This document shows, one piece after another, positions 2,511 to 18,529 of a stretch of 20,989 nucleotides of DNA. The translations under genes were made by a program, and so were the position numbers. A model generated the notes under the pieces. The model worked only from the letters and a program-made list of their open reading frames with translations, ran no database searches and was not told the DNA's origin. This DNA comes from an uncultured bacterium. GTDB lineage: Bacteria; Cyanobacteriota; Cyanobacteriia; Cyanobacteriales; Aerosakkonemataceae. The stretch's first letter is position 1. The number at the start of each line of letters is the position of its first letter. Location of the stretch: assembly GCA_964463555.1 (NCBI GenBank), contig CAYXCW010000132.1:1-20989 (forward strand), written 5' to 3'.

Positions 2511-2739
2511 CGGGGCGGGTTTATTTAATCTTTGGGTAGCCTTCAAACATTTCTGGTAAAACCCGCCCCTACGATGCACAACCTTTCGGCTCGAAATTGA
2601 TATTAGATTAAAAACGCGATCGCATCTTTACAATCATAGGACTTACGCAGAGAAACCGGGTTTCTATGAAAAATCGTCGGTTTGGCAACGAAAGATCCAC
2701 GCAGAAACCCGGTTTCTAGGATCTTCGCGCGTAAGTCCT
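2511..2739. repeat. Copy A of a nested-palindrome repeat family. Inverted repeat GGGGCGGGTTT(2513-2523)...AAACCCGCCCC(2559-2569). A second inverted repeat AGGACTTACGC(2638-2648)...GCGTAAGTCCT(2729-2739) follows it. That second repeat encloses the palindromic pair AGAAACCGGGTTTCT(2651-2665)/AGAAACCCGGTTTCT(2703-2717).
   Basis: Seen directly. The same GGGGCGGGTTT and AGAAACCGGGTTTCT modules recur at 16136-16252 and 18374-18493. The 35 bp between the inner palindromes (ctatgaaaaatcgtcggtttggcaacgaaagatccacgc) aligns with the corresponding spacer of copy C. Confidence 0.6.
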
Positions 2740-2912
2740 AAATCAATCTAATTTCTCGCTTAAAACCGACAATTTTGACCACAAACTCGGTTGCTGGTGG
2801 AAGCGATCGCATACCAAATATTAAGAAATTCTGTAAATCAAAGAAAGTTTTAAGAACTCGGTCAACTCCAAACTGAATTGCTAGTGTAGATACACATTGC
2901 TCCCTTTGGGGG

Positions 2913-5033
2913 ATGAATTTTTTTATGAAAAGTTTCAAAAAAAGCCATAAACTACTGGGGCTGGCAGCCTCGGTATTCGCTTCGATGGCAGTCACTTCTT
3001 TTACCCCTGCCAATGCTGCATCCCGCAACGAGTATCAGATACCGGAAAAACACGTCGCACAACAAGTGCAACCTGCTTCCCCCGTGTCCTTGCCAACTAA
3101 CAACGCTCAAATTCAAACGATGCAAGTGGTAGAACCTTGGGCGCTGATTCCCATTGTTATAGTGGGCGGTATTGTTATATTTGTGCCGCTATTTTTTGGC
3201 GGACTTGTAGTAATTGGCGAACGGGAAGTCGGTATAGTTGTAAAGAAATTTGCGCTTTCCGGTCGCGGACTGCCTCCAGGGCGTTTAATTGCTTTAAATG
3301 GGGAAGCTGGCTATCAAGCGGATACCCTAGCACCGGGATGGCATTGGGGTTATTGGCCTTGGCAATATGCTGTCCGCAAAGAAAACGTTACCGTCATCCC
3401 GCAAGGGGAAATTGCCTTAGTTGTCGCCGCCGATGGTGCTTCGATTCCCCTAGAAAGAATTTTGGGCAAAGTAGTAGATTGCGATAATTTTCAAGATGCG
3501 CGGAAATTCCTCACGAATGGCGGGGAAAAAGGGCGACAATTGGGTATTCTAACTGCTGGAACTTACCGCATCAATACGGCTTTGTTCAAGGTGATTACAG
3601 CAGCTAATGCCAATCAGCATGGCATGAGGCCGGAACATTTGCACATTCATAGCATTTCACCCGATAGAGTCGGAATTATTACCACTTTAGACGGCATTCC
3701 GATTGATGAAGGCGAAATTGCAGGCGCAATTATTCCCGGTCACGATAACTTCCAAAACGGTCAAAAATTCATCAATGGCGGCGGACGCCGAGGTTTGCAA
3801 GAGCAGGTATTATTATCTGGTTCGTGGAACTTAAATCCTTGGTTTGTCCAAGTTGAACAAGTCCCGATGACGGAAATTCCCATCGGCTATGTAGGCGTGG
3901 TAATTTCTTTCGTGGGGACGGCATCGGAAGATATCAGCGGTGCGGCTTTTACTCACGGTCATTTAGTCGAAACTGGACACAAAGGTGTGTGGGTGGAACC
4001 GCTTTATCCAGGCAAACATCCGCTGAATACGCGCGTGATGAAAGTGGAATTGGTGCCGACGACTAATATTGTGTTGAACTTTACGGCGCGAATTACTGGC
4101 GGACACGGGTACGATACCAATTTAACGGCGTTGAAATTACTGTCATTTGATGGATTTAGCTTTGATTTGGAAGTATTTCAAGTCATCCACATCGGTTCGA
4201 TGGATGCGCCAAAGGTGATTTCCCGCTTGGGTTCGATGCAAAATGTTGTAGATCAAGTTTTGCGTCCAATTGTGGGAAATTATTTCCGCAATTCTGCTCA
4301 AGAATACACGATTCTGGATTTCTTAACTGCTCGCAGCGAACGACAAGCAGAAGCGGCAGAATATGTAAAAGCGGCGTTGCGTTCTTATGATGTACAAGCG
4401 GTGGATACTTTGATTGGTTTGATTACACCGCCGCCGGAATTAATGCACACGCTAACTGAACGCAAGTTAGCGGAAGAACAGCGCAAAACTTACGAAGTGC
4501 AGCAGATGGCGCAACAGCAACGCCAGTTACTGGTGCGGGAAACGGCGCTGGCAGATATTCAGCAAGAAATGGTCAAAGCTGAGCAAAATGTTAGTATCGC
4601 CGAACAGAAAGCGAATGCCAACATTAAGCAAGCGACGGGTGAGGCGGAGTCTACTAAGTTAAAAGCAATGGCGGAAGCGGATGCTATTCGCGCTACGGGG
4701 AATGCGAAGGCGGAAGCTTATCGCGCTGGTGTGGAGGCGTTGGGGGCGCAGGGTTACACTTCGATGCAGTTGATGCAAATTGTAGGCGATCGCAAGGTGC
4801 GCTTAATCCCCGATGTGTTGGTTAACGGTAACAATGGCGGTAATGGTTTGGTTGATGGTTTGCTCACCATGCTGTTGTGGAATCAATCTGAAAAATCCCA
4901 TAACGGCACCCCGCCGGAAGTGCCAAAAGTATCGGGTACGGATGCAATAGTTCCTTCCCTGGATAAACCTCCGGTAATTCCGGTTGAGATTCGACCTAAA
5001 CCAAACGGTCAACCTCCATCAAGTCGTCAATAA
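2913..5033 (+). CDS. Flotillin-like SPFH/band-7 family protein. It has an N-terminal signal peptide, one TM helix and a Pro-rich C-terminal tail.
   Basis: 706 aa. The N terminus is MNFFMKSFKKSHKLLGLAASVFASMAVTSFTPANAA, followed by the TM helix LIPIVIVGGIVIFVPLFFGGLVVI. An SPFH-like core begins at EREVGIVVKKF...LAPGWHW. The C-terminal Glu/Ala/Gln-rich heptad region (AEEQRKTYEVQQMAQQQRQLL...AEADAIRATGNAKAEAYRAGVEALGAQG) is characteristic of flotillins. Confidence 0.85.
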   Translation: MNFFMKSFKKSHKLLGLAASVFASMAVTSFTPANAASRNEYQIPEKHVAQQVQPASPVSLPTNNAQIQTMQVVEPWALIPIVIVGGIVIFVPLFFGGLVVIGEREVGIVVKKFALSGRGLPPGRLIALNGEAGYQADTLAPGWHWGYWPWQYAVRKENVTVIPQGEIALVVAADGASIPLERILGKVVDCDNFQDARKFLTNGGEKGRQLGILTAGTYRINTALFKVITAANANQHGMRPEHLHIHSISPDRVGIITTLDGIPIDEGEIAGAIIPGHDNFQNGQKFINGGGRRGLQEQVLLSGSWNLNPWFVQVEQVPMTEIPIGYVGVVISFVGTASEDISGAAFTHGHLVETGHKGVWVEPLYPGKHPLNTRVMKVELVPTTNIVLNFTARITGGHGYDTNLTALKLLSFDGFSFDLEVFQVIHIGSMDAPKVISRLGSMQNVVDQVLRPIVGNYFRNSAQEYTILDFLTARSERQAEAAEYVKAALRSYDVQAVDTLIGLITPPPELMHTLTERKLAEEQRKTYEVQQMAQQQRQLLVRETALADIQQEMVKAEQNVSIAEQKANANIKQATGEAESTKLKAMAEADAIRATGNAKAEAYRAGVEALGAQGYTSMQLMQIVGDRKVRLIPDVLVNGNNGGNGLVDGLLTMLLWNQSEKSHNGTPPEVPKVSGTDAIVPSLDKPPVIPVEIRPKPNGQPPSSRQ

Positions 5034-5088
5034 TCAAGGCAGAAACCAGCGTTTTTTGAACAATATCTTCGCCAATTATCTGCAACGC

Positions 5089-5199
5089 CTACACCCTAAA
5101 GGGTGTGGCTACATAAACGAAGCCTGCCTACGCAGGCTTAAATCAAAACCAGCCCGCCTTCGCGGGCTTTGTTTGTCAAGCGCGCACCCTTCAGGGTGC
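5089..5199. repeat. Cluster of four short GC-rich hairpins with overall mirror (inverted-repeat) symmetry. H1 5089-5108 is ACACCC-taaa-GGGTGT. H2 5121-5138 is GCCTGC-ctac-GCAGGC. H3 5151-5168 is AGCCCGC-cttc-GCGGGCT and is followed by tttgtttgt. H4 5184-5199 is GCACCCT-tc-AGGGTGC.
   Basis: Read directly. H1 resembles H4 and H2 resembles H3. The reverse complement of the right half aligns with the left half, including the inter-hairpin spacers. H3 plus its T-rich tail is a plausible terminator for the flotillin gene. Confidence 0.7.
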
Positions 5200-5248
5200 C
5201 GGATTGTGGCGAAGGTATGATTAAGCCCGTATCAATCGCTAATCACTA

Positions 5249-7204
5249 ATGGCTTTAAACAATCGTTACCGCATAATTGAATTAATTGCTCAAGGCGGAT
5301 TTAGCAAAACTTTCCTGGCTGTGGATGAGCTTAAATCGCCAGCTTTAAGTTGTGTCGTTAAACAATTTTTAGTTCAAAGTCAAGAAAAAAATATAACAAT
5401 CTTTGAAGAGGAAGCAAGGAAACTGAAGGAATTGGGGCAGCATCCGCAAATTCCGGCGCTGTTAGATTTTTTTGAGTCAGATGGATTTTTTTATTGGGTG
5501 CAAGAGTTTGTTGATGGGATGAATTTGGCTAAGGTGGTTGAGTTAGAAGGCGTTCTTAATGAGTCGCAGGTTTGGGATTTGTTGAATAATCTGTTACCTG
5601 TTTTGAAGTTTATTCACGATCGTGATGTTATTCATGGGGATATTAAACCAGCAAATATTCTTCGAGTTGGAAGCAAGGCGGAGCCTTGGGGAAGGCGTTC
5701 TCCGGGCTTACCGCCTGGGAACGAGAAGGTGGGGCAGTTTGTATTGGTCGGTTTTGGAAATGGTATGGGGAGTGCGGAATATGTCGCGCCGGAACAATTG
5801 CAGGGGAAGGCGGTTTTTGCTAGCGATCTTTATAGTTTGGGGGTAACTTGTTTTTATCTGTTGACTGGGGTTTCTCCGTTTAATTTATCGCCTGGGATAT
5901 GGACAGAATACTTGCAGGAGAAAATAAGCGATCGCTTCTCCCACATCCTCGATAAACTCCTACAAAATGACCCCAAGCAACGCTTTCAATCCGCAGATGA
6001 AGTTATGAGAATAATGGGGACAAAACCCCAAATCTCAAATCTCAAATCTCAACTCTCAAATTCCCTATGTTTGCAAACTCTCACCGGGCATGGGGGTTTA
6101 TTTTCGGGGGTGAATTCTGTTGCTATTAGTCCCGATAATCAAGTTTTAGCTAGCGGTAGCGATGATAAATCAATTCGCTTGTGGAATGTTGCGACGGGGG
6201 AAGTAATAGCCACTCTCGTCGGGCATACAGGCTTTGTTCAATCTGTTGCTTTTAGCCCGGATGGAGCTATTCTCGCTTCGGGTAGCGATGATAAAATGAT
6301 TAAACTCTGGGACTTACAAACTTATCAAGAAATTTGTACCTTATCCGAACATTCGCGCGCTGTTAAATCGGTGACATTCAGTCCGATCCCCCCCCAACCC
6401 CCCCTTGCCAAGGGGGGGCAGTTCGATCCCCCACTGGCTCAGGGGGGGCAGTTCGATCCCCCCCAACCCCCCCTTGCTAAGGGGGGGCAGTTCGATCCCC
6501 CACTGGCTCAGGGGGGGCAGTTCGATCCCCCCCAACCCCCCCTTGCTAAGGGGGGGCAGTTCGATCTCCCCAACCCTGCGGATCAAAAAAGCACCGTATC
6601 CGTTGGCTTCCCCCTTTTTAAGGGGGATGGGAGGGGGATCTTCGCTAGTGGGAGTTGGGATAAAACGATTAAATTATGGGATTTGAAGGCAAAAAAGGCC
6701 ATCTGCACGCTAACTGGACATCAATTGCAGGTGACTTGCGTAAGTTTTAGCCCTGATGGACGCTATCTTGCTAGTGCCAGTTTTGACAGAACTGTACGGT
6801 TGTGGGATTTGCAAAACTGGGAATTATTGACGCATCAAATTTTTAAAGGGCATTCTTGGCCTGTTTTTTCGGTGGCTTTTAGTCCCAAGGGGGATATTCT
6901 CGCCACGGGTAGCGGTGATAACACAATTAAATTGTGGGACTTAAAAACCGGGCAAGAAATTCGCACGATTTTGGGTCACTCTTGGTCTGTGGTGGCGATC
7001 GCTTTTTCTCCGGATGGGGAGACTTTGATTAGCGGCAGTTGGGATAAAACTGTCAAACTTTGGCAGGTTAGTACTGGCAAAGAAATTGATACCCTTGCTG
7101 GGCATTTAGACGCGGTTTCCACTGTTGCCGTTAGCCCTAACGGACAAATTATTGCCAGTGGCAGCAAGGATAAAACTATCAAATTGTGGCGGCGCGATGC
7201 TTAG
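5249..7204 (+). CDS. Ser/Thr-protein-kinase-like domain fused to a C-terminal WD40 beta-propeller. The kinase motifs are degenerate, so this is a predicted pseudokinase or atypical kinase.
   Basis: 651 aa. The kinase fold retains the G-loop AQGGFSKT, the Lys in VVKQF and the APE motif YVAPEQ. The catalytic loop is [10 protein letters not shown], not HRD. The position expected for DFG reads VGFGNG. About 25 aa are inserted between the catalytic loop and that position. At least 7 WD40 repeats follow, each ending in the WD40 consensus [15 protein letters not shown]. Confidence 0.9.
6385..6645. repeat. Intragenic, in-frame palindromic repeat array inside the WD40 gene. Alternating 39 bp and 30 bp units form a 69 bp (23 codon) period present about 2.5 times, followed by a degenerate CCCCC-tttttaa-GGGGG hairpin at 6611-6627. 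The 39 bp unit is gatc-C7-aa-C7-TTGCCAA-G7-cagttc. The 30 bp unit is gatc-C5-actggctca-G7-cagttc.
   Basis: Read directly. The array encodes [23 protein letters not shown] repeats. These sit in the loop between WD40 blades, between SVTFSP and [16 protein letters not shown]. The reading frame is preserved. Confidence 0.85.
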
Positions 7205-7518
7205 TTGCTGCCAGTAAATGCCACTTCTGGGAATTTAGATTGCGCTTCTGACATGGGGCGGCGCTTGCCTTCCTCTTGCCAGTAGTCAATCACTTCGGTG
7301 GCTTTATTGAGCATTTCGACGCGGTCGATATCGGAAATCCAGTGCTTGGACTCCAACTCACTTTTTAACTCTTCCCATGCATCATTTCGAGGCCAGAAAA
7401 AGTATTTGGTTAAAGGACTGGTTCCTTTACCTACTACTTGGTCAACCGCGATCGCAACATCCTTCTCTAGCCAGAGAACCTTTAAAATAAACTTCGACAA
7501 GCACACCTCCGGGTTCAT
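7201..7518 (-). CDS. Hypothetical small protein (105 aa). It is convergent with the WD40 gene, overlapping its stop by 4 bp, and divergent from the HAD gene.
   Basis: Non-repetitive ORF with a protein-like, mixed charged/hydrophobic composition. No recognisable motif and no clear SD sequence. Confidence 0.45.
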
Positions 7519-7595
7519 CCCAGATTCTTTACAACTCTACAACCTTATTATTATATCGTATCTATTGCCGGTTGATTAAAACGGGGAAGGCAGTA

Positions 7596-8357
7596 ATGAC
7601 TCCGATTGTGGTTTTTGATATTGATGGTGTCGTGCGCGATGTGGGAGGGTCTTATCGGAGAGCGATCGCAGATACGGTAGAATATTTTACCAATAATGCT
7701 TATCGTCCTACGGTGGAAGACCTCGACCGCCTTAAATCGGAAGGCATCTGGAATAATGATTGGGAAGCGTCGCAAGAGCTAGTTTATCGTTATTTTGAGG
7801 CGCAGGGACGGCAAAGAACGCACATTCCGCTCAATTATGACGACCTGGTTGCTTTTTTCCAATCGCGGTATCGCGGTGCAAATTGGGATGGTTATATCTG
7901 TTCCGAAGCGTTACTGTTGCAACCAAGTTATTTTGAACAACTCACGAATGCGGGAATTCGCTGGGGATTTTTTAGCGGCGCACCCCGCGAGGAAGCGATG
8001 TATGTTTTATCCCGACTCGGTTTAAACTCTCCCGTGTTAGTTGCAATGGAAGATGCACCGGGAAAACCCGATCCCACAGGTTTATTTGCCACTGTGCGTC
8101 AACTTGAGGAAGCGTCATCGGTAATTTACGTAGGTGACACGGTGGCGGATATGTACGTGGTGGAAAAGGCGCGTAACTTGCAAGACAACCGCACCTGGAT
8201 TGCTGTAGGAATTTTACCGCCCCACGTTCTGGAAACACCACTACGCCTGGATGCCTATACTGCTACTCTGCAACAAGCGGGTGCTGCTATAGTTTTGAAC
8301 AATGTGCAGGAATTGACGCCAGCGAAAATTTACGGATTGCTTGATATAGATTTATAG
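7596..8357 (+). CDS. HAD-superfamily hydrolase (phosphatase-like). The ORF track begins at a TTG at 7572. The ATG at 7596, preceded by GGGGAAGG, is preferred.
   Basis: N-terminal motif I VVFDIDGVVRD (DxDG[TV]). A C-terminal YVGDTVADM segment resembles the HAD motif III/IV Asp region. Confidence 0.7.
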   Translation: MTPIVVFDIDGVVRDVGGSYRRAIADTVEYFTNNAYRPTVEDLDRLKSEGIWNNDWEASQELVYRYFEAQGRQRTHIPLNYDDLVAFFQSRYRGANWDGYICSEALLLQPSYFEQLTNAGIRWGFFSGAPREEAMYVLSRLGLNSPVLVAMEDAPGKPDPTGLFATVRQLEEASSVIYVGDTVADMYVVEKARNLQDNRTWIAVGILPPHVLETPLRLDAYTATLQQAGAAIVLNNVQELTPAKIYGLLDIDL

Positions 8358-8673: not shown

Positions 8674-11600
8674 ATGGCAGATAATATTGCAATTGTGGCT
8701 GGATATGCCATCCTGAAAAAAATTCATCAAGGAAGCAGAACATTAGTTTATCGAGGAGTGCGCGATCGCGACCAAAAACCCGTCATTATAAAGCTACTTA
8801 AAAACGAATATCCTACCTTCAGCGAACTGGTACAATTTCGCAATCAGTATACAATTACCAAAAACCTGGACATACCAGGAATTGTGAAACCTTTAGCTTT
8901 AGAAAAATATGGCAATGGTTACGTGCTAGTGATGGAAGACTCTGGGGATGTTTCCCTATCAGATTATATGGCTAATTTGGGGGAAAACCAGTCAGATAAT
9001 AGCTTAGCGGTTGATAAATTTTTGCCTATAGGGATCGAGATTGCAAAAATCTTGTCAGGACTCTATACAGAGCGAATTATTCACAAAGATATTAAACCTA
9101 GTAATATTCTGATTAATCCAGAAACAAAGCAGGTAAAACTGATTGACTTCGGCATCGCCTCATTATTGCCTAAAGAAAACAGCGAAATTGCTAATCCCAA
9201 GGTTTTAGAAGGAACGTTAGCGTATATTTCTCCGGAACAAACCGGCAGGATGAATCGCTGTGTTGATTATCGCACGGACTTCTACTCGCTGGGGGTGACG
9301 TTCTACGAATTACTAACCGGACAACTGCCATTTAATGCTGCCGATGCGATGGAGTTAGTTCACTGTCATATAGCTAAAATTCCTCAATCGCCAATAGAGA
9401 TAAATTCAGCAATTCCTCAAGTGGTTTCTGATATTGTAATGAAATTAATGTCGAAAACCGCTGAATTGAGATATCAGAGTGCTTTTGGGCTGGGATATGA
9501 CCTGGAAATTTGCTGGAAAAATTGGCAAGAGAAGGGCAGAATTGACCGATTTATTTTAGGGGAGAGAGATGTATGCGATCGCTTCCTCATCCCTGAAAAA
9601 CTCTACGGCAGAGAAACCGAAGTCGCTACACTATTAAATGCCTTCGATCGAGTCAGCAATCCCCCCCTTGCCAAGGGGGGGATAGAAATCATGTTAGTGG
9701 CGGGATTTTCTGGCATTGGTAAAACTGCTGTAGTCAATGAAGTTCACAAACCGATTGTCCGCCAAAGTGGTTACTTCATCAAAGGGAAATTTGACCAATT
9801 CAAACGCGATATTCCCTTCTCGGCTTGGGTGCAAGCATTTCAGAATTTGATGCGGCAATTACTGACTGAAAGCGCTGCCGATGTGCAGAAATGGCGAGCC
9901 AAAATCTTAGAGGCTTTGGGTGAAAATGGTCAAGTCATTATTGATGTCATTCCCGAACTAGAACACCTGATTGGCAAGCAGCCAGAGGTTCCAGAATTAG
10001 AAGGAAATGCCGCCCAAAATCGCTTCAACTTACTGTTTGGTAAATTTATCCGATTGTTTGCCACAAAAGAGCATCCTTTAGCGATATTCTTGGATGACTT
10101 GCAGTGGGCAGATTCGGCTTCATTGAAGCTGATACAATTGTTGATGAGCGAGACGGATAGCAGCTATATATTATTAATCGGAGCATACCGGAATAACGAA
10201 GTTTTCGCTGCCCATCCCCTCATGCTAACCTTGGATGAGATTCGCAAACAGTCAGTAACAGTCAATCAAATTACTTTAGCACCCCTAGACCAACTTGCCC
10301 TAAATCGCCTGATTGCCGATACCCTGAGTTGTCCATTAGAAACAGCATTTCCTTTGACAGAACTGGTATTCGCTAAAACCAAAGGCAATCCTTTTTTTGC
10401 AACGCAATTCCTCAAGTCTCTGCATGAGGATGGGTTAATTTCATTTGATTTTAGTTGCGGGTATTGGCAGTGCGATATTGCTCAAGTCAGGGCGCTGGCA
10501 TTGACTGATGATGTAGTTGAATTTATGGCGATTCAGCTACAAAAATTGCCTCTAAATACGCAGGATGTTTTAAAGCTTGCAGCTTGTATAGGCAACTCTT
10601 TTGACTTGGCAACCCTAGCAATAGTTTATGAAAAATCTCAAGCAGAAACGGCGGCTGACTTATGGAAAGCATTGCAAGAAGGATTGGTAATTCCCCGCAC
10701 TGAAGTATACAAGTTCTTTCACGATTCTGAATCAGTTGAAGTTGTACCAGCATCTGATTTATCAGTTACATATAAATTTTTACATGACCGAGTACAACAA
10801 GCGGCATATTTTTTAATTCCCGAATCCCAGAAACAGTTAACTCATTTAAAAATTGGGCAACTGCTGTTAAACAACACCTCTCAAGCAGAAATAGAAGAGA
10901 AAATTTTTGATATTGCCAACCAATTGAATATCGGGGCGGAGTTAATTACCCATCAGAATGAGAAAGATGAACTAGCTCAATTAAATCTTATTGCTGGACG
11001 CAAAGCTAAAGCGTCTACAGCTTATGCAGCTGCTCTCAAATATTTGACTATAGGCGTACAAATTCTAGCTAATTCTAGTTGGCAAACCCACTATGAACTG
11101 ACATTATCACTGTATAATGAAGCCGCAGAAGTGGCATTTTTAAACGGCAACTTTCAGCAGATGGAGGAATGGACTGATATTGTCATCAAACAAGCCACAA
11201 TTATTCTAGACAAGGTGAAAGTTTATCAAGTCAAAATTCAAGCTTGTATGGCACTCAACCAGCAACTTGAAGCCGTTAATATCGCCTTACCAATTCTGAA
11301 ATTATTGGGGGTGGAGTTTCCTCAAAAACCCAGCGATTCAGATGTTCAGCTAGCACTGGAGGAAACCAAGTCAAATTTGAGTGGCAAGCGAATTGAAGGC
11401 TTAATTGACTTGCCTCAAATGACAAACCCTGAGAAGCTAGCAGCGATGAAAATTCTAGCGAGTGTATTTTCTGCTGCGTTTCAAGCTATTCCAGAAATGT
11501 TTCCCCTGATTGTGTGCAAACAGGTTAATTTATCCCTTGAATATGGGAATGATTCGGGATCGGCTTTTGCTTATGCTACCTACGCATTAATTCTCTGTGG

Positions 11601-14289
11601 AATTGTGGGAGATATTGAATCTGGCTATCAAGTTGGTAAACTGGCTCTAGGTCTGCTAAACCGGGCAAATGCTAAAGAAGTTAAAACTAGAACGATGCAA
11701 ATAGTTTATAGCTTCGTCATCCATTGGCAAGAGCATCTTAATCAAACAATACAACCTTTACAAGCAGCTTATCAACATGGATTGGAAATTGGAGATGTAG
11801 AATATGCTGCCTATTGTGGAGCAGTTTACTGTCTCCATGCCTTTTTTATTGGTAAAGAACTTAGTATTTTAGAGCAAGAGATGGTAACTTACAGTGAAGC
11901 GATCGCTCACCTCAAGCAAGAAACAGCATTAAATTATCATCAAGTTTATCAACAGTTTGTAGAAAATTTATTAGGTAATTGCGTTAATCCCTGCCAGTTG
12001 ATTGGTGAGAGTTACAACGAAGATAAGATGCTGCCACTGCATCTAAAACTCAAGGATAAAACAGCAATTTCTTATTTATATTTTAACAAAAGTCTTCTTT
12101 GTTATTTGTTTGGGGAGTTAGAGGAGGCTGCTAAATTTATCGCCCTAGCCGAACAGTATTTAAATGGATTAACTGCAACCATCAATATTCCTTTGTTTTA
12201 CTTTTACGATTCTATAATCAAGTTTGCTGTATACAAAAATAATTCAAAAACTGAGCAAAATGATATTCTTAATAAGGTAAAAAACAATCAGGATAAAATT
12301 AAAAAATGGGCAGATTATAGTCCGAACAATTATTTACATAAATTTTATTTAGTTGCAGCGGAAAAGCATCGGATTCTAGGGGAAACTATTGAGGCTATAG
12401 AATGTTACGATCGTGCAATTCAACTCGCGCAAGAAAACAAATTTATTAACGAAGAAGCATTAGCTCACGAACTTGCGGCTAAATTCTATCTTTCCTGGGG
12501 TAAAGAAAAGATTGCCCAAGTCTATTTAACTGATGCTTACTATGCCTATGCTCGTTGGGGTGCTAAAGCTAAAGTTGAAGATTTAGAAAAGCGGTATCCC
12601 CAATTACTCGCTCCGATTCTGAACCAGAAAAATCACCTAAATCCAAACGAAACAATTACCCAAATGTCGAGCGGAACGATCGCATCCACCAGTTCAGATG
12701 TATCAAACATTCTGGACTTAGCGACGGTGATTAAAGCTTCGCAATCGCTTTCAGGGGAAATCGATCTCAATCGGTTGCTTTCAACATTGATGCAAGTGAC
12801 GATCGAGAATGCCGGAGCGAATAAAGGCGCTTTGATTTGGGTAGAGGGAGATGCATTAACGATCGCAGCTCAATGTGCGATCGCTCAAGGCTGCCACCTA
12901 CAGTCTACTCCGATTGATAGCTCTCAAGATATTCCCATTACCCCGATCAATTATGTGTGGCGCACAGGGGAAACTTTAGTCATTAATGATGCTACTACTG
13001 AAACAACCTTTGCTGCCGATCCCTACATTATTCAACAGCAACCTAAATCGATTTTGTGCTTGCCAATTCAACACCAAGGAAAAGCGATCGCTCTGCTTTA
13101 TCTAGAAAACAATCTAATTACCGGAGCCTTTACCCCCGCCAGATTGGAACTTTTAAAAGTCCTATCTGCCCAAGCAGCAATATCGCTATCTAACGCACAA
13201 CTGTACGCCCAACTTAAGAAAAGCGAGAATTTACTAGCAGAATACAATCGCACTTTAGAACAACAAGTTGCCGAACGAACTCAAGAACTATCCCAAGCTC
13301 TGGAACAACTCAAAAATACCCAAGACGAACTGATTCAATCGGAAAAAATGGCAGCTTTGGGACAACTCGTGGCTGGTGTTGCTCACGAAGTAAATACACC
13401 CTTGGGAGCCATTACATCCTCAATTAAAAATATTGACAATTTTTGGAAAGATCGTTTAGATAACTTAACAGTAATTTCCCAAGAACTCTCTTCAGAAATT
13501 AAACCTTATTTTTTAGCATTGGTGCAAAAATCTAGCGAACAAAATCAAACTTTATCTACGCGAGAACAACGGCAAATTAAAAAAGCTTTAGCCGAACAGC
13601 TTAAAGCGCACCAAGTCGGAAATGAAACAGCGATCGCTAATACGTTATTAAATATTGGCATCTATGATAATGTAGAAAGCTTTCTGCCTCTGTTAAACCA
13701 CCCAGATAGCCAAAAAATTCTACAAATGGTCAACCAAATAGCCAACGTACAAATTAGCACTAAAACTATTATTACAGCTGCCGAACGAGCTGCTAAAGTA
13801 GTGTTTGCTCTGAAAACTTACGCTCGCTACGATAGCATGGGAGAAAAAGTCAGAGCCAATCTTATTACTGGGATTGAAACTATCTTAACTCTCTACCAAA
13901 ACCAAACTAAGCACGGTGTAGAGATTATCCGCAACTTTGACTATTCTATACCAGATATTTCCTGCTATTTTGACGAACTCAATCAAGTCTGGACAAATTT
14001 AATTCACAATGCCTTGCAAGCAATGGATTACAAAGGTAAATTAACGATTGATGCGACTAAGCAAGAAAATCAAATTCACATCGCCATTACCGATAGCGGT
14101 ACGGGGATTCCTCCAGAAATTATGCCCAAAATATTTCAGCCTTTCTTTACGACTAAACCTGCTGGGGAAGGCAGCGGTTTGGGTTTAGACATTGTCCGGA
14201 AGATTGTTGAGAAACATGGGGGCAAAATCTCCGTGGAGTCTGTACCGGGTAAAACTACGTTTACCGTATCTTTACCGATAAACAGCTAA
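8674..14289 (+). CDS. HstK-type multidomain sensor (1871 aa). N-terminal Ser/Thr kinase domain, then a P-loop NTPase (AAA/STAND-like), a long helical/TPR-like region, a GAF domain, and a histidine kinase (HisKA plus HATPase_c).
   Basis: Kinase: VIIKLLK, HKDIKPSNIL, KLIDFGIA, AYISPEQ. NTPase: Walker A GFSGIGKT and Walker B IFLDDLQWAD. GAF-like segment around aa 1345-1500 (...LYLENNL...). H-box: VAGVAHEVNTPLGAI. HATPase G-boxes: DSGTGIPPEIMPKIFQPFFTTK and GSGLGLDIV. SD-like taaGGAAat lies before the ATG. Confidence 0.93.
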   Translation: MADNIAIVAGYAILKKIHQGSRTLVYRGVRDRDQKPVIIKLLKNEYPTFSELVQFRNQYTITKNLDIPGIVKPLALEKYGNGYVLVMEDSGDVSLSDYMANLGENQSDNSLAVDKFLPIGIEIAKILSGLYTERIIHKDIKPSNILINPETKQVKLIDFGIASLLPKENSEIANPKVLEGTLAYISPEQTGRMNRCVDYRTDFYSLGVTFYELLTGQLPFNAADAMELVHCHIAKIPQSPIEINSAIPQVVSDIVMKLMSKTAELRYQSAFGLGYDLEICWKNWQEKGRIDRFILGERDVCDRFLIPEKLYGRETEVATLLNAFDRVSNPPLAKGGIEIMLVAGFSGIGKTAVVNEVHKPIVRQSGYFIKGKFDQFKRDIPFSAWVQAFQNLMRQLLTESAADVQKWRAKILEALGENGQVIIDVIPELEHLIGKQPEVPELEGNAAQNRFNLLFGKFIRLFATKEHPLAIFLDDLQWADSASLKLIQLLMSETDSSYILLIGAYRNNEVFAAHPLMLTLDEIRKQSVTVNQITLAPLDQLALNRLIADTLSCPLETAFPLTELVFAKTKGNPFFATQFLKSLHEDGLISFDFSCGYWQCDIAQVRALALTDDVVEFMAIQLQKLPLNTQDVLKLAACIGNSFDLATLAIVYEKSQAETAADLWKALQEGLVIPRTEVYKFFHDSESVEVVPASDLSVTYKFLHDRVQQAAYFLIPESQKQLTHLKIGQLLLNNTSQAEIEEKIFDIANQLNIGAELITHQNEKDELAQLNLIAGRKAKASTAYAAALKYLTIGVQILANSSWQTHYELTLSLYNEAAEVAFLNGNFQQMEEWTDIVIKQATIILDKVKVYQVKIQACMALNQQLEAVNIALPILKLLGVEFPQKPSDSDVQLALEETKSNLSGKRIEGLIDLPQMTNPEKLAAMKILASVFSAAFQAIPEMFPLIVCKQVNLSLEYGNDSGSAFAYATYALILCGIVGDIESGYQVGKLALGLLNRANAKEVKTRTMQIVYSFVIHWQEHLNQTIQPLQAAYQHGLEIGDVEYAAYCGAVYCLHAFFIGKELSILEQEMVTYSEAIAHLKQETALNYHQVYQQFVENLLGNCVNPCQLIGESYNEDKMLPLHLKLKDKTAISYLYFNKSLLCYLFGELEEAAKFIALAEQYLNGLTATINIPLFYFYDSIIKFAVYKNNSKTEQNDILNKVKNNQDKIKKWADYSPNNYLHKFYLVAAEKHRILGETIEAIECYDRAIQLAQENKFINEEALAHELAAKFYLSWGKEKIAQVYLTDAYYAYARWGAKAKVEDLEKRYPQLLAPILNQKNHLNPNETITQMSSGTIASTSSDVSNILDLATVIKASQSLSGEIDLNRLLSTLMQVTIENAGANKGALIWVEGDALTIAAQCAIAQGCHLQSTPIDSSQDIPITPINYVWRTGETLVINDATTETTFAADPYIIQQQPKSILCLPIQHQGKAIALLYLENNLITGAFTPARLELLKVLSAQAAISLSNAQLYAQLKKSENLLAEYNRTLEQQVAERTQELSQALEQLKNTQDELIQSEKMAALGQLVAGVAHEVNTPLGAITSSIKNIDNFWKDRLDNLTVISQELSSEIKPYFLALVQKSSEQNQTLSTREQRQIKKALAEQLKAHQVGNETAIANTLLNIGIYDNVESFLPLLNHPDSQKILQMVNQIANVQISTKTIITAAERAAKVVFALKTYARYDSMGEKVRANLITGIETILTLYQNQTKHGVEIIRNFDYSIPDISCYFDELNQVWTNLIHNALQAMDYKGKLTIDATKQENQIHIAITDSGTGIPPEIMPKIFQPFFTTKPAGEGSGLGLDIVRKIVEKHGGKISVESVPGKTTFTVSLPINS
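9661..9681. repeat. Single copy of the 21 bp hairpin element CCCCCCC-TTGCCAA-GGGGGGG, inserted in frame in the sensor-kinase gene. It encodes PPLAKGG between the kinase domain and the Walker A motif.
   Basis: It is identical to the core of the 39 bp unit of the 6385-6645 array, 3.3 kb upstream in a different gene. The flanking residues (DRVSN..IEIMLVAGFSGIGKT) fit the usual linker of this protein family. Confidence 0.8.
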
Positions 14290-14320
14290 AAACCCAACAA
14301 TAAAGTGAGGAGTTTAAAAT

Positions 14321-14716
14321 ATGTCAGAAGCAGTAATTTTATGCGTCGATGATGAAGCAATAGTTCTCAAAAGTTTGTCGATAGAGCTGCAAAATGCATT
14401 TGAGGATAGCTATATTTATGAATTTGCCGAAAGCCCAGATGAAGCATTAGAAATAATTGAGGAATTCCATGAAGATAAAATTCGCATTCTTTTAATCGTC
14501 TCAGATTGGCTGATGCCAGGAATGAAAGGAGATGAATTTTTAATCCGCGTACATGAAAGATATCCAAATATTGTCAAAATTATGCTAACGGGACAAGCTG
14601 ATGAAGCAGCAGTAGAACGTGCCAAAAAAGACGCCAATCTTTATCAATGCTTGCGAAAACCTTGGAAGTCTCAAGAATTAATTGAAACGATTCGTTCTGC
14701 TTTAGCAAAATTATGA
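14321..14716 (+). CDS. Stand-alone response-regulator receiver (CheY-like REC) protein
   Basis: 131 aa. Acidic pocket VDDE, phospho-acceptor Asp in LIVSDWLMPGMKG, Thr in KIMLTGQAD, Lys in LRKPW. Strong SD GTGAGGAG lies 8 nt before the ATG. Confidence 0.92.
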   Translation: MSEAVILCVDDEAIVLKSLSIELQNAFEDSYIYEFAESPDEALEIIEEFHEDKIRILLIVSDWLMPGMKGDEFLIRVHERYPNIVKIMLTGQADEAAVERAKKDANLYQCLRKPWKSQELIETIRSALAKL

Positions 14717-16020
14717 ATCAAGTTGCCATTACAATTATCTGCGTCGATGACGATCTAACTGTTTTAAACAGTCTGAAAATAGAGCTAGAAAACAATTTTG
14801 GCGAACAATACGTCATCGAATTGGCTCAAGATGGGGAAGAAGCTTTAGAGATATTCGCCGAATTAATGGATAATGGGTACGAAATCCCCATAGTAATTTC
14901 CGACTATATTATGCCAGGGATGAAAGGGGATGAGTTACTTCGATGCATTCATGCTATTTCCCCTAAAACGCTCAAAATTATGCTGACTGGACAAGCAGAT
15001 ATAGAAGCGATGGGTAATGCGATTAATTATGCTAATTTGTATCGCTTTATTACTAAGCCTTGGCACGATAAAGATTTAGTTTTAACGGTGAAAGAAGCTA
15101 TTAATAGCTATTTTAACGAGAAAGCATTGGCAGATAAAACCACCAAGCTTTTAAAAATCAATCGCGAATTAGAGCGATTAAATCAAGCTTTTTCTCGCTT
15201 TGTTCCCAAGCAATTTCTAAAATTATTGAATAAATCTAGTATTGTTGAAATTGAATTAGGCGACGCGGTGCAGCAAAATATGTCAATATTATTTGCTGAT
15301 ATTCGCGATTTTACCAAGCTCTCGGAAAAGATGACTCCCAATGAAAATTTTAAATTTATCAACTCTTATTTAAGTTGCATGGAACCAGCCATTATTGAAA
15401 ATGGTGGATTTATTGATAAATATATTGGCGATGCAATTATGGCGCTTTTTCCTGAGAGTGCCGACGATGCTCTGAAAGCGGCAATTGGTATGCTGACTGC
15501 CTTAAATGAGTACAATCAAGACCGTCAAACTATTGGCTATCCCTCAATTAGAATTGGCATTGGAATCAATACAGGTTTGCTGATGCTGGGAACTGTAGGC
15601 GGAAAAAGTCGCATGGATGGTACGGGGATTGGTGATGCGGTAAATTTGGCTTCTCGCGTCGAATCTCTAACTAAAGATTACGGGGTGTCGCTGTTAATTA
15701 CGCAACAAACTTTTGAACTATTGCAAGATCCAAATCGGTACGCACTGCGCCTAATTGACCGAGTCCAAGTTAAAGGGAAATCTGAATTGGTCACAGTTTA
15801 TGAAGTATTTGAAACCGATCTACCTACGATCAGAGAAGCAAAGTTAGCAAATAAGACAAAATTTGAAGAAGCCTGGTTACTTTATAATCAGGCTTCTTTT
15901 CCAGCAGCAGCAAAATTGTTTAGGCATTGCTTGTGCCAAAATCCGGGCGATCGCGTGGCGCAAATTTATCTCGAACGCTGTCAAAATAATTTTAACTATC
16001 ATCTAGATGAAGCTGTTTGA
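14713..16020 (+). CDS. Response-regulator receiver fused to a class III nucleotidyl (adenylate/guanylate) cyclase catalytic domain
   Basis: 435 aa. The N-terminal REC is paralogous to the preceding gene (VDDD, VISDYIMPGMKG, KIMLTGQAD, ITKPW). The cyclase motifs are FADIRDFT, YIGDAIMALF, IGIGINTG and GIGDAVNLASRVE. Its start overlaps the upstream stop in ATGA (14713-14716), consistent with translational coupling. Confidence 0.92.
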   Translation: MNQVAITIICVDDDLTVLNSLKIELENNFGEQYVIELAQDGEEALEIFAELMDNGYEIPIVISDYIMPGMKGDELLRCIHAISPKTLKIMLTGQADIEAMGNAINYANLYRFITKPWHDKDLVLTVKEAINSYFNEKALADKTTKLLKINRELERLNQAFSRFVPKQFLKLLNKSSIVEIELGDAVQQNMSILFADIRDFTKLSEKMTPNENFKFINSYLSCMEPAIIENGGFIDKYIGDAIMALFPESADDALKAAIGMLTALNEYNQDRQTIGYPSIRIGIGINTGLLMLGTVGGKSRMDGTGIGDAVNLASRVESLTKDYGVSLLITQQTFELLQDPNRYALRLIDRVQVKGKSELVTVYEVFETDLPTIREAKLANKTKFEEAWLLYNQASFPAAAKLFRHCLCQNPGDRVAQIYLERCQNNFNYHLDEAV

Positions 16021-16069
16021 AATTTGTTAATTGCTAATTGTTAATTGCTAATTGCTAATTGTCAATTGC
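16021..16069. repeat. Tandem heptamer array of 7 units (AATTTGT TAATTGC TAATTGT TAATTGC TAATTGC TAATTGT CAATTGC). It is a one-base variant of the GGTAATT family and starts directly after the cyclase stop codon.
   Basis: Read directly. It is roughly the inverted partner of the (ATTACC)n array at 16302-16322, on the far side of element B. Confidence 0.85.
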
Positions 16070-16099
16070 CTCCTCCAGCAGCAATTAGCTATGATCGCT

Positions 16100-16296
16100 T
16101 ATATCATGTCCGGTAGCATCGGTAGCTGCACGTCCGGGGCGGGTTTAAAAAATTCCTCGATGGCAGAAACCGGGTTTCTTAGTATATTTTAGTTTCCAAG
16201 TCGAAAATTAATCGATAGAAACCCGGTTTCTTTAGATAAAACCCGCCCCTACAACATTAAAAATTATACACAACCTATGCTCTTAGACATGATATA
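16100..16296. mobile_element. Copy B of the nested-palindrome element; MITE-like, with no coding capacity. Three layers of inverted repeats. Outermost, a terminal inverted repeat: TATATCATGTC (16100-16110) / GACATGATATA (16286-16296). Inside that, GGGGCGGGTTT (16136-16146) / AAACCCGCCCC (16240-16250). Innermost, AGAAACCGGGTTTCT (16165-16179) / AGAAACCCGGTTTCT (16217-16231).
   Basis: Seen directly. The 11 bp terminal inverted repeats are perfect. The element lies between convergent genes and is bracketed by inverted heptamer arrays. Confidence 0.65.
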
Positions 16297-16301
16297 ACTC
16301 C

Positions 16302-16322
16302 GATTACCAATTACCCATTACC
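16302..16322. repeat. (GATTACC AATTACC CATTACC) heptamer array, the complement orientation of GGTAATT. It is followed by the aactattgc motif also seen in the loop of the 1895-1978 hairpin.
   Basis: Read directly. Confidence 0.8.
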
Positions 16323-16325
16323 AAA

Positions 16326-17129
16326 CTATTGCAATTTCAAAAATTTCTCCAATGCTGCGACCATATTAGGAGGCCAACGACGGATATTTTTGACCCAATC
16401 TATATCTTTATAACGCGCGTCCAGTCCGACAGCCGCTACCCAGTTACTTTCTGCTTCGCCTTGCTTTCCTTCTACCCAAAGTGCAGCACTGAGAGCAGCT
16501 CGCACATCGGGGAACATGCTATATTTGCGAGCAATATTTTTCAACGTGCGAATCGCCTCTTGGTTTTGACCTGTTTGATACAATGCTAGGGCATAATTGG
16601 CTCTAGCAAAGGCGAAATTAGGGGCGATTTCTGTGGCTTTTTGGTAATCAGCGATCGCATCTTCCCAATTCCCTAACCCGGCGCTGGCATTTCCCCGGTT
16701 ATTATATGCCATTGCATCGTTGGGATTGATTTCCAAAACGCGATTGTAGTCGGCAATTGCTTCTGTAAATCTTCCCAATCCTTCTAACGCCGCACCGCGA
16801 TTTAAATAAGGATCGGCAGCATTAGGGGCGAGTTCTATTGATTGATTGAAATCGGCGATCGCATCTTCTAATTTATTCTGACTGGTTCGAGAATTTCCCC
16901 GATTGCTCCAAACCGCCGGATTTGTGGGAAATTTTTCGATTAACTGCGTCCAGTATGTTTCTGCTGTGGCAAAATCGCCTTTATCCGTCGCATCGAAGGC
17001 TTTCTGCGCCAGAGCATCCCCTGCTTGCAACTCTGCTTCTGTAATTGTGGGGGCTGTTTGAGTTTGCGCGATCGCAGGCATTCCCCATAGCAACAGAATG
17101 CTTACTAAAGTCAGAATTAAGCGTATCAT
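16326..17129 (-). CDS. Exported TPR-repeat protein
   Basis: 267 aa. Signal peptide MIRLILTLVSILLLWGMPAIAQTQ. Multiple 34-aa TPR units with the pattern A/P..N..A..NRG.A......A..DY..A...NP (e.g. AIADYNRVLEINPNDAMAYNNRGNA). Confidence 0.85.
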   Translation of the reverse strand: MIRLILTLVSILLLWGMPAIAQTQTAPTITEAELQAGDALAQKAFDATDKGDFATAETYWTQLIEKFPTNPAVWSNRGNSRTSQNKLEDAIADFNQSIELAPNAADPYLNRGAALEGLGRFTEAIADYNRVLEINPNDAMAYNNRGNASAGLGNWEDAIADYQKATEIAPNFAFARANYALALYQTGQNQEAIRTLKNIARKYSMFPDVRAALSAALWVEGKQGEAESNWVAAVGLDARYKDIDWVKNIRRWPPNMVAALEKFLKLQ

Positions 17130-17221
17130 TTATTAACCGCTGACTATCAACTGAGTTAATTTTATTTTCCCATACATTGTCTACCCGGTCAATTCGTTTT
17201 AAACTTTAAATAATAAATTTT

Positions 17222-18268
17222 TCATGACTTATATTGTATGTTATTAACTGCAACTGGGATGCCGCCTTGATTGAGAGATGCGGTTAAAGCGGTAAGAATT
17301 TCCACGAGTTGAGTGCCGATCCAACCCGAGGAAATCGAGTCAGGTTTATTTTGAATCACGCTGGAGAGGAAGCGATCGCAAACTTTTTTCAATGGTTCTG
17401 TTGGTTCTAGCTTTAACACTTTGCAGCGTTGATTAATGGGAATAAATAGCTCGTCTTTAACTGCAAAATTTCCATATTGAATTGTTAAAGGAGCATCAAC
17501 AGACATTTCGTCAAAAATTAACGTGCCGTTGCTTCCTACTACTGCTAAACGCCGCTGTTTATCGGGATTGAGCCAACAGAGGTGAATTGTAGCTTGAAAC
17601 CCGCTTTTGTAAGTCAGATTAACCCAAACTAAATCGTGTAAATTTTGGATGGGAGGATGGCTTTGATTTTGTTGCAACCAAACTCTACCTGTAGCTTGCA
17701 CTTGGATCGGAATTTCACCCAGCCAAGTGTTGAAAATGGCGATATCGTGAATCGCTAAATCCCACAAAGCATCAACATCGTAGCGCACGGGGCCTAAATT
17801 AGTTCGGGTAGCGTAGCCATAGCGCAAGTCTCCTAATATACCCGTTGCCAAAACAGTTTTGCCTCGCTCTACAGCCGGATGGAATAAATAAGTGTGGTCA
17901 ACGAAGAGTTGGCGCTGCTGTTTTTCGGCTAATCGACACAGTTCGACGCATTCTGTAGGATCTAGGGTTAAAGGTTTTTCGGTGAAAACGTGGTAACCTT
18001 GCTCCAGAGCGTCGGCGATCAAATTGTAATGGGTAGATGCTGGAGTGACGATCGCTACCGCATCGAGTCCGGGTAATTGTCGCACGGTTGCCCAGTCGGT
18101 GGTTAGAACTACAGTATCGTTTAACTCAAAGCGCGATCGCAAATCGGCTAACCGCTCCTCGTTTGAATCTACCACGGCTACCAAAGTTGCTTGGGGATGT
18201 GCCAAAAAATTTCGCACCAAGTGTACTCCCCAACGTCCAGCCCCTAATACAGCGATTTTTATCGTCAT
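17222..18268 (-). CDS. Gfo/Idh/MocA-family NAD(P)-dependent oxidoreductase. The ORF-track start at 18397 is an artefact of reading back through the heptamer array and element C. The true start is the ATG at 18266-18268 (MTIKIAVLGAGRWG...).
   Basis: N-terminal Rossmann motif KIAVLGAGRWG and the family-typical segment EKPLTLDPTECVEL (EKP motif). The upstream track extension encodes only the repeat-derived YQLPITN peptide. Confidence 0.85.
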   Translation of the reverse strand: MTIKIAVLGAGRWGVHLVRNFLAHPQATLVAVVDSNEERLADLRSRFELNDTVVLTTDWATVRQLPGLDAVAIVTPASTHYNLIADALEQGYHVFTEKPLTLDPTECVELCRLAEKQQRQLFVDHTYLFHPAVERGKTVLATGILGDLRYGYATRTNLGPVRYDVDALWDLAIHDIAIFNTWLGEIPIQVQATGRVWLQQNQSHPPIQNLHDLVWVNLTYKSGFQATIHLCWLNPDKQRRLAVVGSNGTLIFDEMSVDAPLTIQYGNFAVKDELFIPINQRCKVLKLEPTEPLKKVCDRFLSSVIQNKPDSISSGWIGTQLVEILTALTASLNQGGIPVAVNNIQYKS

Positions 18269-18326
18269 TGGTAATTGGTAATTGGTAATTGGTAATTGGT
18301 AATTGGTAATTGGTAGTTGGTAATTG
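18268..18326. repeat. (TTGGTAA)x8 tandem heptamer array plus one degenerate unit. It abuts the start codon of the oxidoreductase gene.
   Basis: Read directly. It is the inverted partner of the 18549-18590 array. Confidence 0.9.
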
Positions 18327-18529
18327 ATAATATCATGTCTGTTAGCAATGGTTATGCAAGTGTTTTTAATGCTGTAGGGGCGGGTTTTACCAATCAATTC
18401 TTGGAAAGAAACCGGGTTTCTATGAAAAATCTTTGAGCAAGGAAAGAGATCTACAAAGAAACCCGGTTTCTGGATTCGTTAAACCAGCCCCAGGTTACGC
18501 TAACGATGCCGCCAAACATGATATAATTC
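18327..18529. mobile_element. Copy C of the nested-palindrome element; MITE-like. Terminal inverted repeat ATAATATCATGTC (18327-18339) / ACATGATATAATT (18517-18529). Inside it, GTAGGGGCGGGTTTT (18374-18388) with a degenerate partner AAACCAGCCCC (18481-18491), and AGAAACCGGGTTTCT (18407-18421) / AGAAACCCGGTTTCT (18457-18471).
   Basis: Seen directly. Its module order and terminal inverted repeats match copy B. Its inner spacer matches copy A. It occupies the rnc-to-oxidoreductase intergenic space on the minus strand. Confidence 0.65.

Follow-up and report, generated by a model that had tools for sequence, protein, structure and literature searches.

Repetitive extragenic palindromic sequences (REPs) of Pseudomonas and Escherichia coli are short imperfect palindromes that are dispersed between genes as inverted doublets with a short spacer (REPINs), and the presence of the same REPs on both sides of a gene for a REP-associated tyrosine transposase (RAYT) is the defining signature of the REPIN-RAYT system (PMC3116915). 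In the cyanobacterium Anabaena variabilis, REP dimers have been described inside long palindromic sequences (Di Nocera et al. 2013, PMC3733652). The window analyzed here, the entire 20,989-nt stretch of contig CAYXCW010000132.1 from an uncultured cyanobacterium, contains three ~200-bp repeats, designated copies A, B and C. An original prediction, made from the sequence of the window, had described them as a single three-copy family built from shuffled palindromic modules. Our analysis resolves them instead into two nested families and a set of unrelated heptamer arrays, and we consider it quite probable that the two families are non-autonomous palindromic mobile DNA of a filamentous cyanobacterium: a REPIN, and an outer palindrome similar to MITEs (transposable elements of the miniature inverted-repeat kind). 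Both belong to an ordinary kind of bacterial repeat, as REPINs, RAYTs, cyanobacterial GTAG REPs, nesting, MITEs and heptamers have all been described before (PMC3116915, PMC3733652, PMC3184786).

The inner module shared by the three copies is a REPIN, an inverted doublet of 15-nt REPs with the structure AGAAACCGGGTTTCT, 35-37 nt, AGAAACCCGGTTTCT. The 15-mer AGAAACCSGGTTTCT is found in the window in six exact copies (at 2651, 2703, 16165, 16217, 18407 and 18457) as opposed to 0.05 expected by chance, and allowing three mismatches adds just two further sites, both of them doubtful. The G-rich GGGGCGGGTTT has six occurrences that form three inverted pairs (2512/2559, 16136/16239 and 18377/18481; 0.38 expected), TATATCATGTC has four that form two inverted pairs (0.17 expected), and AGGACTTACGC and GCGTAAGTCCT constitute one inverted pair in copy A, so that the motifs assigned to the repeats by the original prediction are all present where it had placed them, far above chance. 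The paired 15-mers are separated by 37, 37 and 35 nt in A, B and C, respectively, in agreement with the predicted 35-40 bp. What does not hold is the description of the 15-mer as a perfect palindrome: its length is odd, the middle base being G or C, and within a pair one member is the exact reverse complement of the other, which makes each pair an inverted repeat. The resulting REPIN cores occupy positions 2651-2717 (plus strand), 16165-16231 (minus strand) and 18407-18471 (plus strand); all six 15-mers in them are perfect, while the three spacers are just 54-76% identical.

Scanning one genome per bacterial species for exact 15-mers with a gap of 25-55 nt, we identified the doublet in at least 116 loci from dozens of cyanobacteria, mostly filamentous forms but also some unicellular ones, and from metagenome-assembled genomes (MAGs) of Chloroflexi. 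The genera among the matches listed include Lyngbya, Microcoleus, Oscillatoria, Calothrix, Spirulina, Tychonema, Kamptonema, Prochloron and others, and the 116 listed loci contain 176 and 172 exact copies of the 15-mer AGAAACC-S-GGTTTCT. Although gaps of 25-55 nt were allowed, the spacers of the 147 doublet instances from these loci are confined to 30-39 nt, with a mode of 35, and both halves of the doublet show a weakly conserved AAATTT 6-11 nt inside the REP. In twelve loci from Chloroflexi MAGs (Thermoflexales, Anaerolineae and Ardenticatenaceae) the identical doublet has a spacer of 30-32 nt. These loci have a GC content of 55-61% and are essentially devoid of HIP1, the highly iterated palindrome GCGATCGC of cyanobacteria, which indicates that they are genuine and that the REPIN core is common to both phyla. 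Different cyanobacterial orders and Chloroflexi have one and the same REP core. In some genomes the doublets are arrayed in tandem, with as many as 10 or more units surrounding transposase genes, and a longer form of the REPIN, bracketed by AGGACTTACGC and GCGTAAGTCCT, is present in Brasilonema, in Microcoleus and in other loci (L062, L083 and L159 included) and near the RAYT gene of Nostoc sp. PCC 7524. Perfect inverted repeats of at least 8 nt flank 16 of 105 isolated REPINs, compared to 2.4% in re-paired controls, and in some cases they consist of HIP1 on both sides. A full-text search of 8 million papers with the 15-mer or its 13-nt core retrieved none.

A fixed 15-mer of this kind could alternatively be an operator, and binding of a dimeric protein had in fact been proposed for it. 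On this explanation, the near-palindromes would be two host-conserved sites of a dimeric regulator, ~50 bp apart from center to center, or approximately five helical turns, which would agree with the perfect preservation of six 15-mers next to diverged spacers, with the identity of the 15-mer in two phyla and with the spacing fixed at 30-39 nt. Nevertheless, we find a regulatory role of this sort very improbable, because the doublet has no consistent placement relative to gene starts, is embedded in other repeats, forms tandem arrays around transposase genes and, in copy B, has convergent genes on its two sides and hence no promoter on which a regulator could act. Moreover, the protein that is consistently linked to the 15-mer is a RAYT, and binding by a RAYT is already part of the REPIN explanation.

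A link between the doublet and RAYT genes is apparent at one of the doublet loci, L045, where arrays of doublets flank an open reading frame (ORF) of 186 amino acids that matches the Pfam domain Y1_Tnp (PF01797). This protein scores 81.6 bits against the equivalog model NF047646 (REP_Tyr_transpos) of NCBIfam, for which the cut-off is 80. Its sole relative in the PDB is TnpAREP of E. coli (4ER8), with which both the HuH motif (HYH/HMH) and the catalytic tyrosine (YIHLNP/YIYINP) could be aligned. The protein has thousands of homologs; the best 120 of them appear to be cyanobacterial wherever the organism is given, and many are named RayT. We inspected nine RAYT loci, namely L045, those of Kamptonema animale, Microcoleus, Nostoc sp. 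PCC 7524 and Capilliphycus salinus, and four on metagenome or MAG contigs. In all nine, the 15-mers were located within 500 bp of the RAYT gene on both sides, with few or none elsewhere in the locus, and the REP core is identical even next to RAYTs that have just 60-65% identity to the L045 protein. A tblastn search for the RAYT in the window and in the 116 listed doublet loci detected the gene in L045 alone, as is expected because it is a single-copy gene; no link between the RAYT clusters and the ERZ10661xx samples, whose metagenome contigs match the window, was found. A search for IS200/IS605- or IS630/Tc1-type transposases, suggested by the original prediction, was thus successful for the inner module, which flanks genes for RAYTs, Y1/HUH enzymes of the IS200 superfamily, but in 1.48 Mb of fetched cyanobacterial DNA yielded no transposase with matching TATATCATGTC ends.

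Several RAYT genes are accompanied by tandem REPIN arrays with a period of ~81-100 bp (L045, 4950-5670; L053, 6150-6700; L072, 6200-7360). For the arrays in L045 and L053, a CRISPR was considered and ruled out, as their units are inverted doublets, the "spacers" are near-identical and the adjoining gene encodes a transposase. Many of the RAYT genes are located on contigs that are very short or at the end of a contig, probably because REPIN arrays break short-read assemblies. In Nostoc sp. PCC 7524 (L127, 2840-3640), the whole REPIN-RAYT-REPIN block is enclosed between a left-hand GGACTTA and a right-hand GCGTAAGTC; this transposase gene appears to be situated inside one long REPIN, possibly an autonomous form.

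The second family is the outer element, a palindrome of ~137 bp bounded by terminal inverted repeats (TIRs). It ends in ATAT[C/G]ATGTCC and has ATCGGTA in a subterminal position; further inside, an 11-bp GGGGCGGGTTT stem, next to which stands TAC (GTAG when the opposite strand is read), closes a 36-nt loop. The element measures 137 bp when it lacks a REPIN and 195-198 bp when it carries one, and it has no coding capacity. The GTAG tag belongs to the G stem of this element and not to the 15-mer REP. Once the REPINs are removed, copy B (plus strand) and copy C (minus strand) align over their full length with each other and with positions 2494-2610 of the window. REPIN-free outer elements of 137-142 bp are present in Microseira wollei (L073, 3462-3598) and in the MAG UBA11372 (L111), with ~73% identity to the window copies over the full length, and Kamptonema and Capilliphycus contain partial copies; the alignment of six outer elements has a palindromic consensus. 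The GGGGCGGGTTT stem and the TATATCATGTC termini are therefore parts of one MITE-like element and not separate modules. The idea that the submodules are separately mobile stands to the extent that the inner module occurs alone in at least 116 loci, the outer element occurs alone in other genera and the REPIN unit of copy A is present in one strain and absent from another; it fails for the G stem and the termini.

Clear TIRs of 11-13 bp, in B exact (TATATCATGTC at 16100 and 16286) and in C with one mismatch per arm (18329 and 18515), had been predicted correctly, and they raise the question of whether each ~200-bp unit is a classical MITE, that is, an internal deletion derivative of an insertion sequence (IS) with a DDE transposase (e.g., IS630/Tc1) that was moved via the TATATCATGTC TIRs. 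The size of the units is within the MITE range, they lack coding capacity, the composite represented by copy B has a paralog with the same termini, and other genera retain the outer element over its entire length. Against this, the inner module exists without these termini in more than 100 loci and the outer element exists without the inner module. Furthermore, no transposase adjoining such termini, no parent IS and no pair of these TIRs more than ~200 bp apart was detected in 1.48 Mb of fetched cyanobacterial DNA, and no direct repeat, TA or other, flanks copy B, copy C or the copy in the related strain L211. Without a visible target-site duplication, the IS630/Tc1 origin has no support, and the derivation of the entire unit from a DDE-type element is, in our estimation, distinctly unlikely, whereas for the outer element alone a classical DDE-type MITE is possible.

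In copies B and C, the REPIN is located in the apical loop of the outer element. Copy B (16099-16297, plus strand) has TIRs at 16100-16110 and 16286-16296 and the G stem at 16136-16146 and 16239-16249, followed by TAC; between its REPIN core and the G arms there are 18 nt on the left and 7 nt on the right, and the spacer of this REPIN has an orientation opposite to that in A and C. Copy C (18328-18526, minus strand) has TIRs at 18329-18339 and 18515-18525, a G stem at 18377-18387 and 18481-18491, with one mismatch in the arm at 18481, and GTAG at 18373-18376. Read in the orientation of the outer element, its REPIN core is separated from the G arms by 9 nt on the left and 19 nt on the right, and 15 of these 19 nt on the right match the uninterrupted loop of the Microseira element. 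Compared with A and B, copy C has its outer element inverted, and the orientation of the REPIN relative to the outer element is the same in B and C. The different positions of the REPIN in the two loops indicate that there were probably two separate insertions. In addition, L211 contains a paralog of copy B at another locus (1797-1994) with 79% identity, the same position of the REPIN and a spacer that is 86% identical, which suggests that the B-type composite has also been copied as a unit. Among the 116 listed loci, the composite is found in this species alone; one further copy is the paralog in L211. Within the species, copy C varies by one heptamer unit and by a single T>C substitution in one of its 15-mers. 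Synteny of the cyclase and TPR genes around copy B is not conserved in the relatives fetched, and a comparison of L211 with L210, considered as a potential empty site for the B-type composite, was too unclean to be used.

Copy A, which had been regarded as a single element, is in fact two neighbors ~30 bp apart: a decayed outer element and, downstream of it, a separate REPIN unit. The former (2494-2610, plus strand) is REPIN-free and aligns with the REPIN-stripped elements of B and C and with those of Microseira and UBA11372; its left TIR is deleted, its right TIR has decayed to GAAATTGATATTA, and its stem (2512-2522 and 2559-2569) encloses a 36-nt loop and is followed by TAC. The orthologous outer element in L211 (6679-6826) retains the left TIR, TTATATTATGTCC. 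The REPIN unit (2638-2739, plus strand) is a 102-bp "long" form that consists of AGGACTTACGC (2638-2648), 2 nt, the REPIN core with its two inverted 15-nt REPs and 37-nt spacer, 11 nt, and GCGTAAGTCCT (2729-2739), consistent with the bracketing of the inner module that had been predicted for this copy. The spacer has the same orientation as that of C and shares 76% identity with it. L211, with an identical AtpB protein and 89-95% identity in the flanks, does not have the 102-bp unit; the site has 21 nt instead, including AAAAATCTGGTTTTT, which matches the REP at 11 of 15 positions. On the other side of the outer element, L211 has a 348-nt insert relative to the window (6358-6704), located between the atpE terminator and the outer element and composed of two ~150-nt tandem units, each with a miniature TIR pair at its start (CATATGATGTCC ... 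CCCATGATATAA) that is similar to the ends of the outer element. The atpE terminator itself, a canonical intrinsic terminator with a 14-bp stem and a T run, is found in the window at 2437-2468, directly 3' of atpE, and is separate from copy A, which lies ~25 nt downstream.

All three copies are intergenic and without coding capacity, as had been predicted, which fits non-autonomous elements: A is located between atpE and a Band7 gene, B between convergent genes for a cyclase and a TPR protein, and C between rnc and a gene for a GFO-oxidoreductase. The cyanobacterial character of the window is apparent from atpB and atpE, from many HIP1 sites and from heptamer tandem repeats, and the atpB region of the MAG GCA_003501785.1 (L210) is 98% identical to it. 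No further copies of the repeats were found in ~13 kb of additional sequence from the same or the 98%-identical strain, and a BLAST comparison of copy B with the plasmids in PLSDB produced no match.

Copies B and C are each centered in a pair of inverted heptamer arrays. To the left of B there is (TTGCTAA)n at 16024-16069, outside the element, with the partner (ATTACCA)n at 16303-16324; to the left of C, (ATTGGTA)9 at 18267-18331 has an inverted partner, (CATTACC)n, at 18548-18587, with which it forms a ~27-bp stem around C. The latter array has nine copies of the heptamer here and eight in L117 and L118 of the same species. A hairpin of the same type without any insert is found between atpB and atpE, where (GTAATTG)5 and (CGATTAC)6 are 11 nt apart (1889-1978). 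Because the L211 paralog of B has no heptamer arrays, and neither do the outer elements of other genera, we regard these arrays as context only.

The site of copy C allowed a wider comparison, since the rnc-GFO gene pair is conserved in ~50 cyanobacterial loci (L130-L204). Its spacer ranges from 10 bp to several hundred bp and is a hot spot for repeats, and many of these spacers carry inverted heptamer arrays. In L183, a different palindrome of ~125 nt is located exactly at the apex of the heptamer hairpin, whereas L184, L193 and L194, which are close relatives, have nothing at that apex. The closest relative of the window at this site (L132; 70% identity of the GFO protein) has the termini of the outer element with a different interior, and the spacers of L146 and L147 carry the G stem. 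At each level of nesting in B and C, as in L183, the insert would sit at the tip of a pre-existing hairpin, a pattern that, in the few cases available and together with the inverted repeats flanking isolated REPINs, would fit insertion into exposed single-stranded loops by an HUH enzyme acting on single-stranded DNA. Incidentally, long hairpins directly downstream of rnc could be substrates of RNase III.

Hairpin formation is also the basis of another alternative that had been put forward, according to which the repeats are a family of structured non-coding RNAs (ncRNAs) or cis-acting RNA hairpins, such as terminators, RNase III processing sites or stabilizers of mRNA, that are kept for their function and are not mobile. 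As single strands, the copies fold into nested hairpins far better than shuffled sequences (z-scores of -4.3 for A, -6.8 for B and -9.2 for C with its heptamer arrays), and the 15-bp stem is predicted in every fold. Other observations that favor an RNA function are the position of B between convergent genes and that of C directly downstream of the gene for RNase III, the presence of some hairpin-forming repeat in the rnc-GFO spacer of most cyanobacterial relatives, and the known influence of REPs and MITEs on mRNA stability (PMC3184786). These stable folds find no match in Rfam, however, at either gathering or permissive thresholds (E <= 1), apart from spurious hits to hairpins of miRNA precursors, and they lack the support of covariation: in the RNAalifold analysis of the six outer elements, double changes were seen in 4 of 33 pairs, many pairs were broken and the covariation term was unfavorable (+2.31). 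Neither B nor C contains a canonical terminator, a 5-bp stem in C (18400-18416) being among counts that are no higher than in shuffled sequence, and consensus scans for promoters and terminators inside the elements returned nothing above chance. Taking into account that the elements occur in both orientations relative to neighboring genes, that the inner module adjoins a transposase gene in each of the nine loci and that its presence varies between strains, we view an ncRNA family as unlikely, although the elements may have a secondary, exapted role in RNA.

Mobility of two nested families accommodates these data best in our judgment, yet there are several observations that it does not readily explain or that detract from it. 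The perfect state of the 15-mers next to diverged spacers cannot be accounted for by simple neutral decay after insertion and hints at selection, conversion or recent replacement acting on the REPs. No position in the 30 nt around 145 doublets is conserved, and the GTAG/CGTC tetranucleotide that accompanies canonical REPs is not among them. Neither the window nor ~13 kb of extra sequence from the same species contains a RAYT gene, so that a cognate RAYT is assumed to reside within the source genome. The motifs of the RAYT (NHYH, FQ and YIHLNP) resemble those tabulated for subclass 2.1 (PMC6006769), which has been reported without flanking REPs (PMC6006769), so that the assignment of the family within the RAYTs is tentative. 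The argument for independent insertions of the REPIN in B and C relies on two copies and on alignments of short, poorly conserved loops, and accordingly suggests, as a comparison of sequences, such a history for these two cases. The REP-like remnant at the seemingly empty L211 site makes a deletion in L211 as possible as an insertion here. Finally, the outer element, as detailed above, has neither a visible target duplication at the three sites nor a recognizable parent in the fetched DNA.

How the two families might have arisen can be outlined following the REPIN/RAYT model (PMC3116915). The REPIN doublet, when exposed on single-stranded DNA, would fold into a long hairpin that a single-copy HUH/Y1 transposase of the RAYT type may bind, cut and rejoin, giving rise to copies at new sites. 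The REPIN would have entered the apical loop of the outer element in B and, likewise, in C, both of which are centered in inverted heptamer arrays, and the B-type composite could later have been copied as a unit. Ton-Hoang et al. are said to have studied E. coli TnpAREP in vitro in 2012; we know of no experimental reconstitution of REPIN transposition. A more speculative proposal, which we hold to be rather doubtful, is that RAYT-type machinery prefers single-stranded apical loops and that the identity of the REPs implies either recurrent transfer of one RAYT-REPIN system across phyla or selection on REPs at the level of the host. If true, the stacking of one hairpin on the tip of another would document in nature which targets REPINs choose, and cross-phylum transfer or host selection would run against the notion of lineage-specific, vertically inherited REPIN populations.

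To our knowledge, work on REPINs and RAYTs has been confined almost entirely to Proteobacteria. A widespread cyanobacterial REPIN family, also present in Chloroflexi and with an easily recognized 15-nt core, could be used for annotating repeats and offers a second phylum for testing ideas on the persistence of REPINs, with the nested copies providing a small natural data set on landing sites. REPIN arrays at the ends of many RAYT contigs would help to explain assembly breaks. As for the window itself, the repeats are best viewed not as genes or regulatory RNAs but as selfish DNA, and they should accordingly be masked or receive an annotation of that kind.

Four kinds of cyanobacterial repeats and the REPIN-RAYT system of Proteobacteria can be compared with the elements described here. 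The heptamer arrays correspond to the short tandemly repeated repetitive (STRR) sequences that Mazel et al. reportedly described in 1990 from heterocystous and other filamentous cyanobacteria: they are intergenic tandem repeats of the (T/C)TGGTAA type with a copy number that varies between strains. Here, however, they merely surround B and C, and they are absent around the L211 paralog and the elements of other genera. The small dispersed repeats (SDRs) of Nostoc punctiforme are, according to what Elhai et al. are said to have reported in 2008, 21-27 nt long, occur as single units and have other repeats and, in some cases, genes as insertion sites, the latter in frame. By this description, they are similar to the elements of the window in being very small palindromic mobile repeats of filamentous cyanobacteria that insert into other repeats, but differ in that the elements here are 65-nt doublets tied to a RAYT. 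The window does contain another repeat, the 21-nt palindrome CCCCCCCTTGCCAAGGGGGGG, inside two protein kinase ORFs (6379-6572 and 9661-9681), where it is translated in frame as PPLAKGG. It forms an array of 2.8 units of 69 nt in a WD40 kinase (5249-7204) and is present as a single copy in a kinase of 1871 amino acids; the WD40 kinase has 651 amino acids here and 631 in L118 and L209, so the number of repeats varies within the species. Judging by description, the CCCCCCCTTGCCAAGGGGGGG units resemble SDRs of the Elhai type more than the REPIN and the outer element do.

The outer element shares with the Nezha MITE, reportedly described by Zhou et al. in 2008 and summarized in later papers (PMC3184786, PMC6042816), a size of 130-170 bp, TIRs, a stable predicted hairpin and an intergenic location in filamentous cyanobacteria. 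Nezha is described as having a 10-bp direct repeat (CATTATCTAC in the reference copy) and ends in common with ISNpu3 (PMC3184786, PMC6042816). By these described features the outer element is set apart from it, since B, C and the L211 copy have no direct repeat and no parent IS was found in the DNA that we fetched. Another relative is the group of cyanobacterial GTAG REPs (families GTAG-12, -15 and -16; PMC3733652), whose tag the G stem of the outer element also carries (GTAGGGGCGGGTTT), and the REP dimers in long palindromes of Anabaena variabilis follow the same nesting principle as B and C (PMC3733652). Unlike these GTAG REPs, the stem of the outer element closes a loop of 36 nt, as compared to 9-15 nt for the "large" loops in that study, and the G stem is always part of a ~137-bp element bounded by TIRs. 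The sequence GGGGCGGG is absent from the text and supplements of PMC3733652, in which the family consensus sequences stand in a figure.

Compared with the REPIN-RAYT systems of Pseudomonas and E. coli (PMC3116915; PDB 4ER8), the sequence of the REP is unrelated and is also different from the Nostoc punctiforme REP GTTGGGTTTCGTTCCTCAACCCAAC given in PMC3116915, no conserved GTAG/CGTC tag is found beside the 15-mer, and the protein motifs resemble those of the RAYT subclass that was reported without REPs (PMC6006769). Whereas described REPINs are lineage-specific, the 30 core bases of the REPIN in the window recur across cyanobacterial orders and in Chloroflexi. In their organization, on the other hand, the two are alike: both consist of short, imperfectly palindromic REPs that are paired in inverted orientation across a short spacer and dispersed in intergenic regions, their presence differs between strains, and the REPs cluster on both sides of a Y1/HUH gene, which in the present case is recognized by the NCBIfam model for RAYTs.

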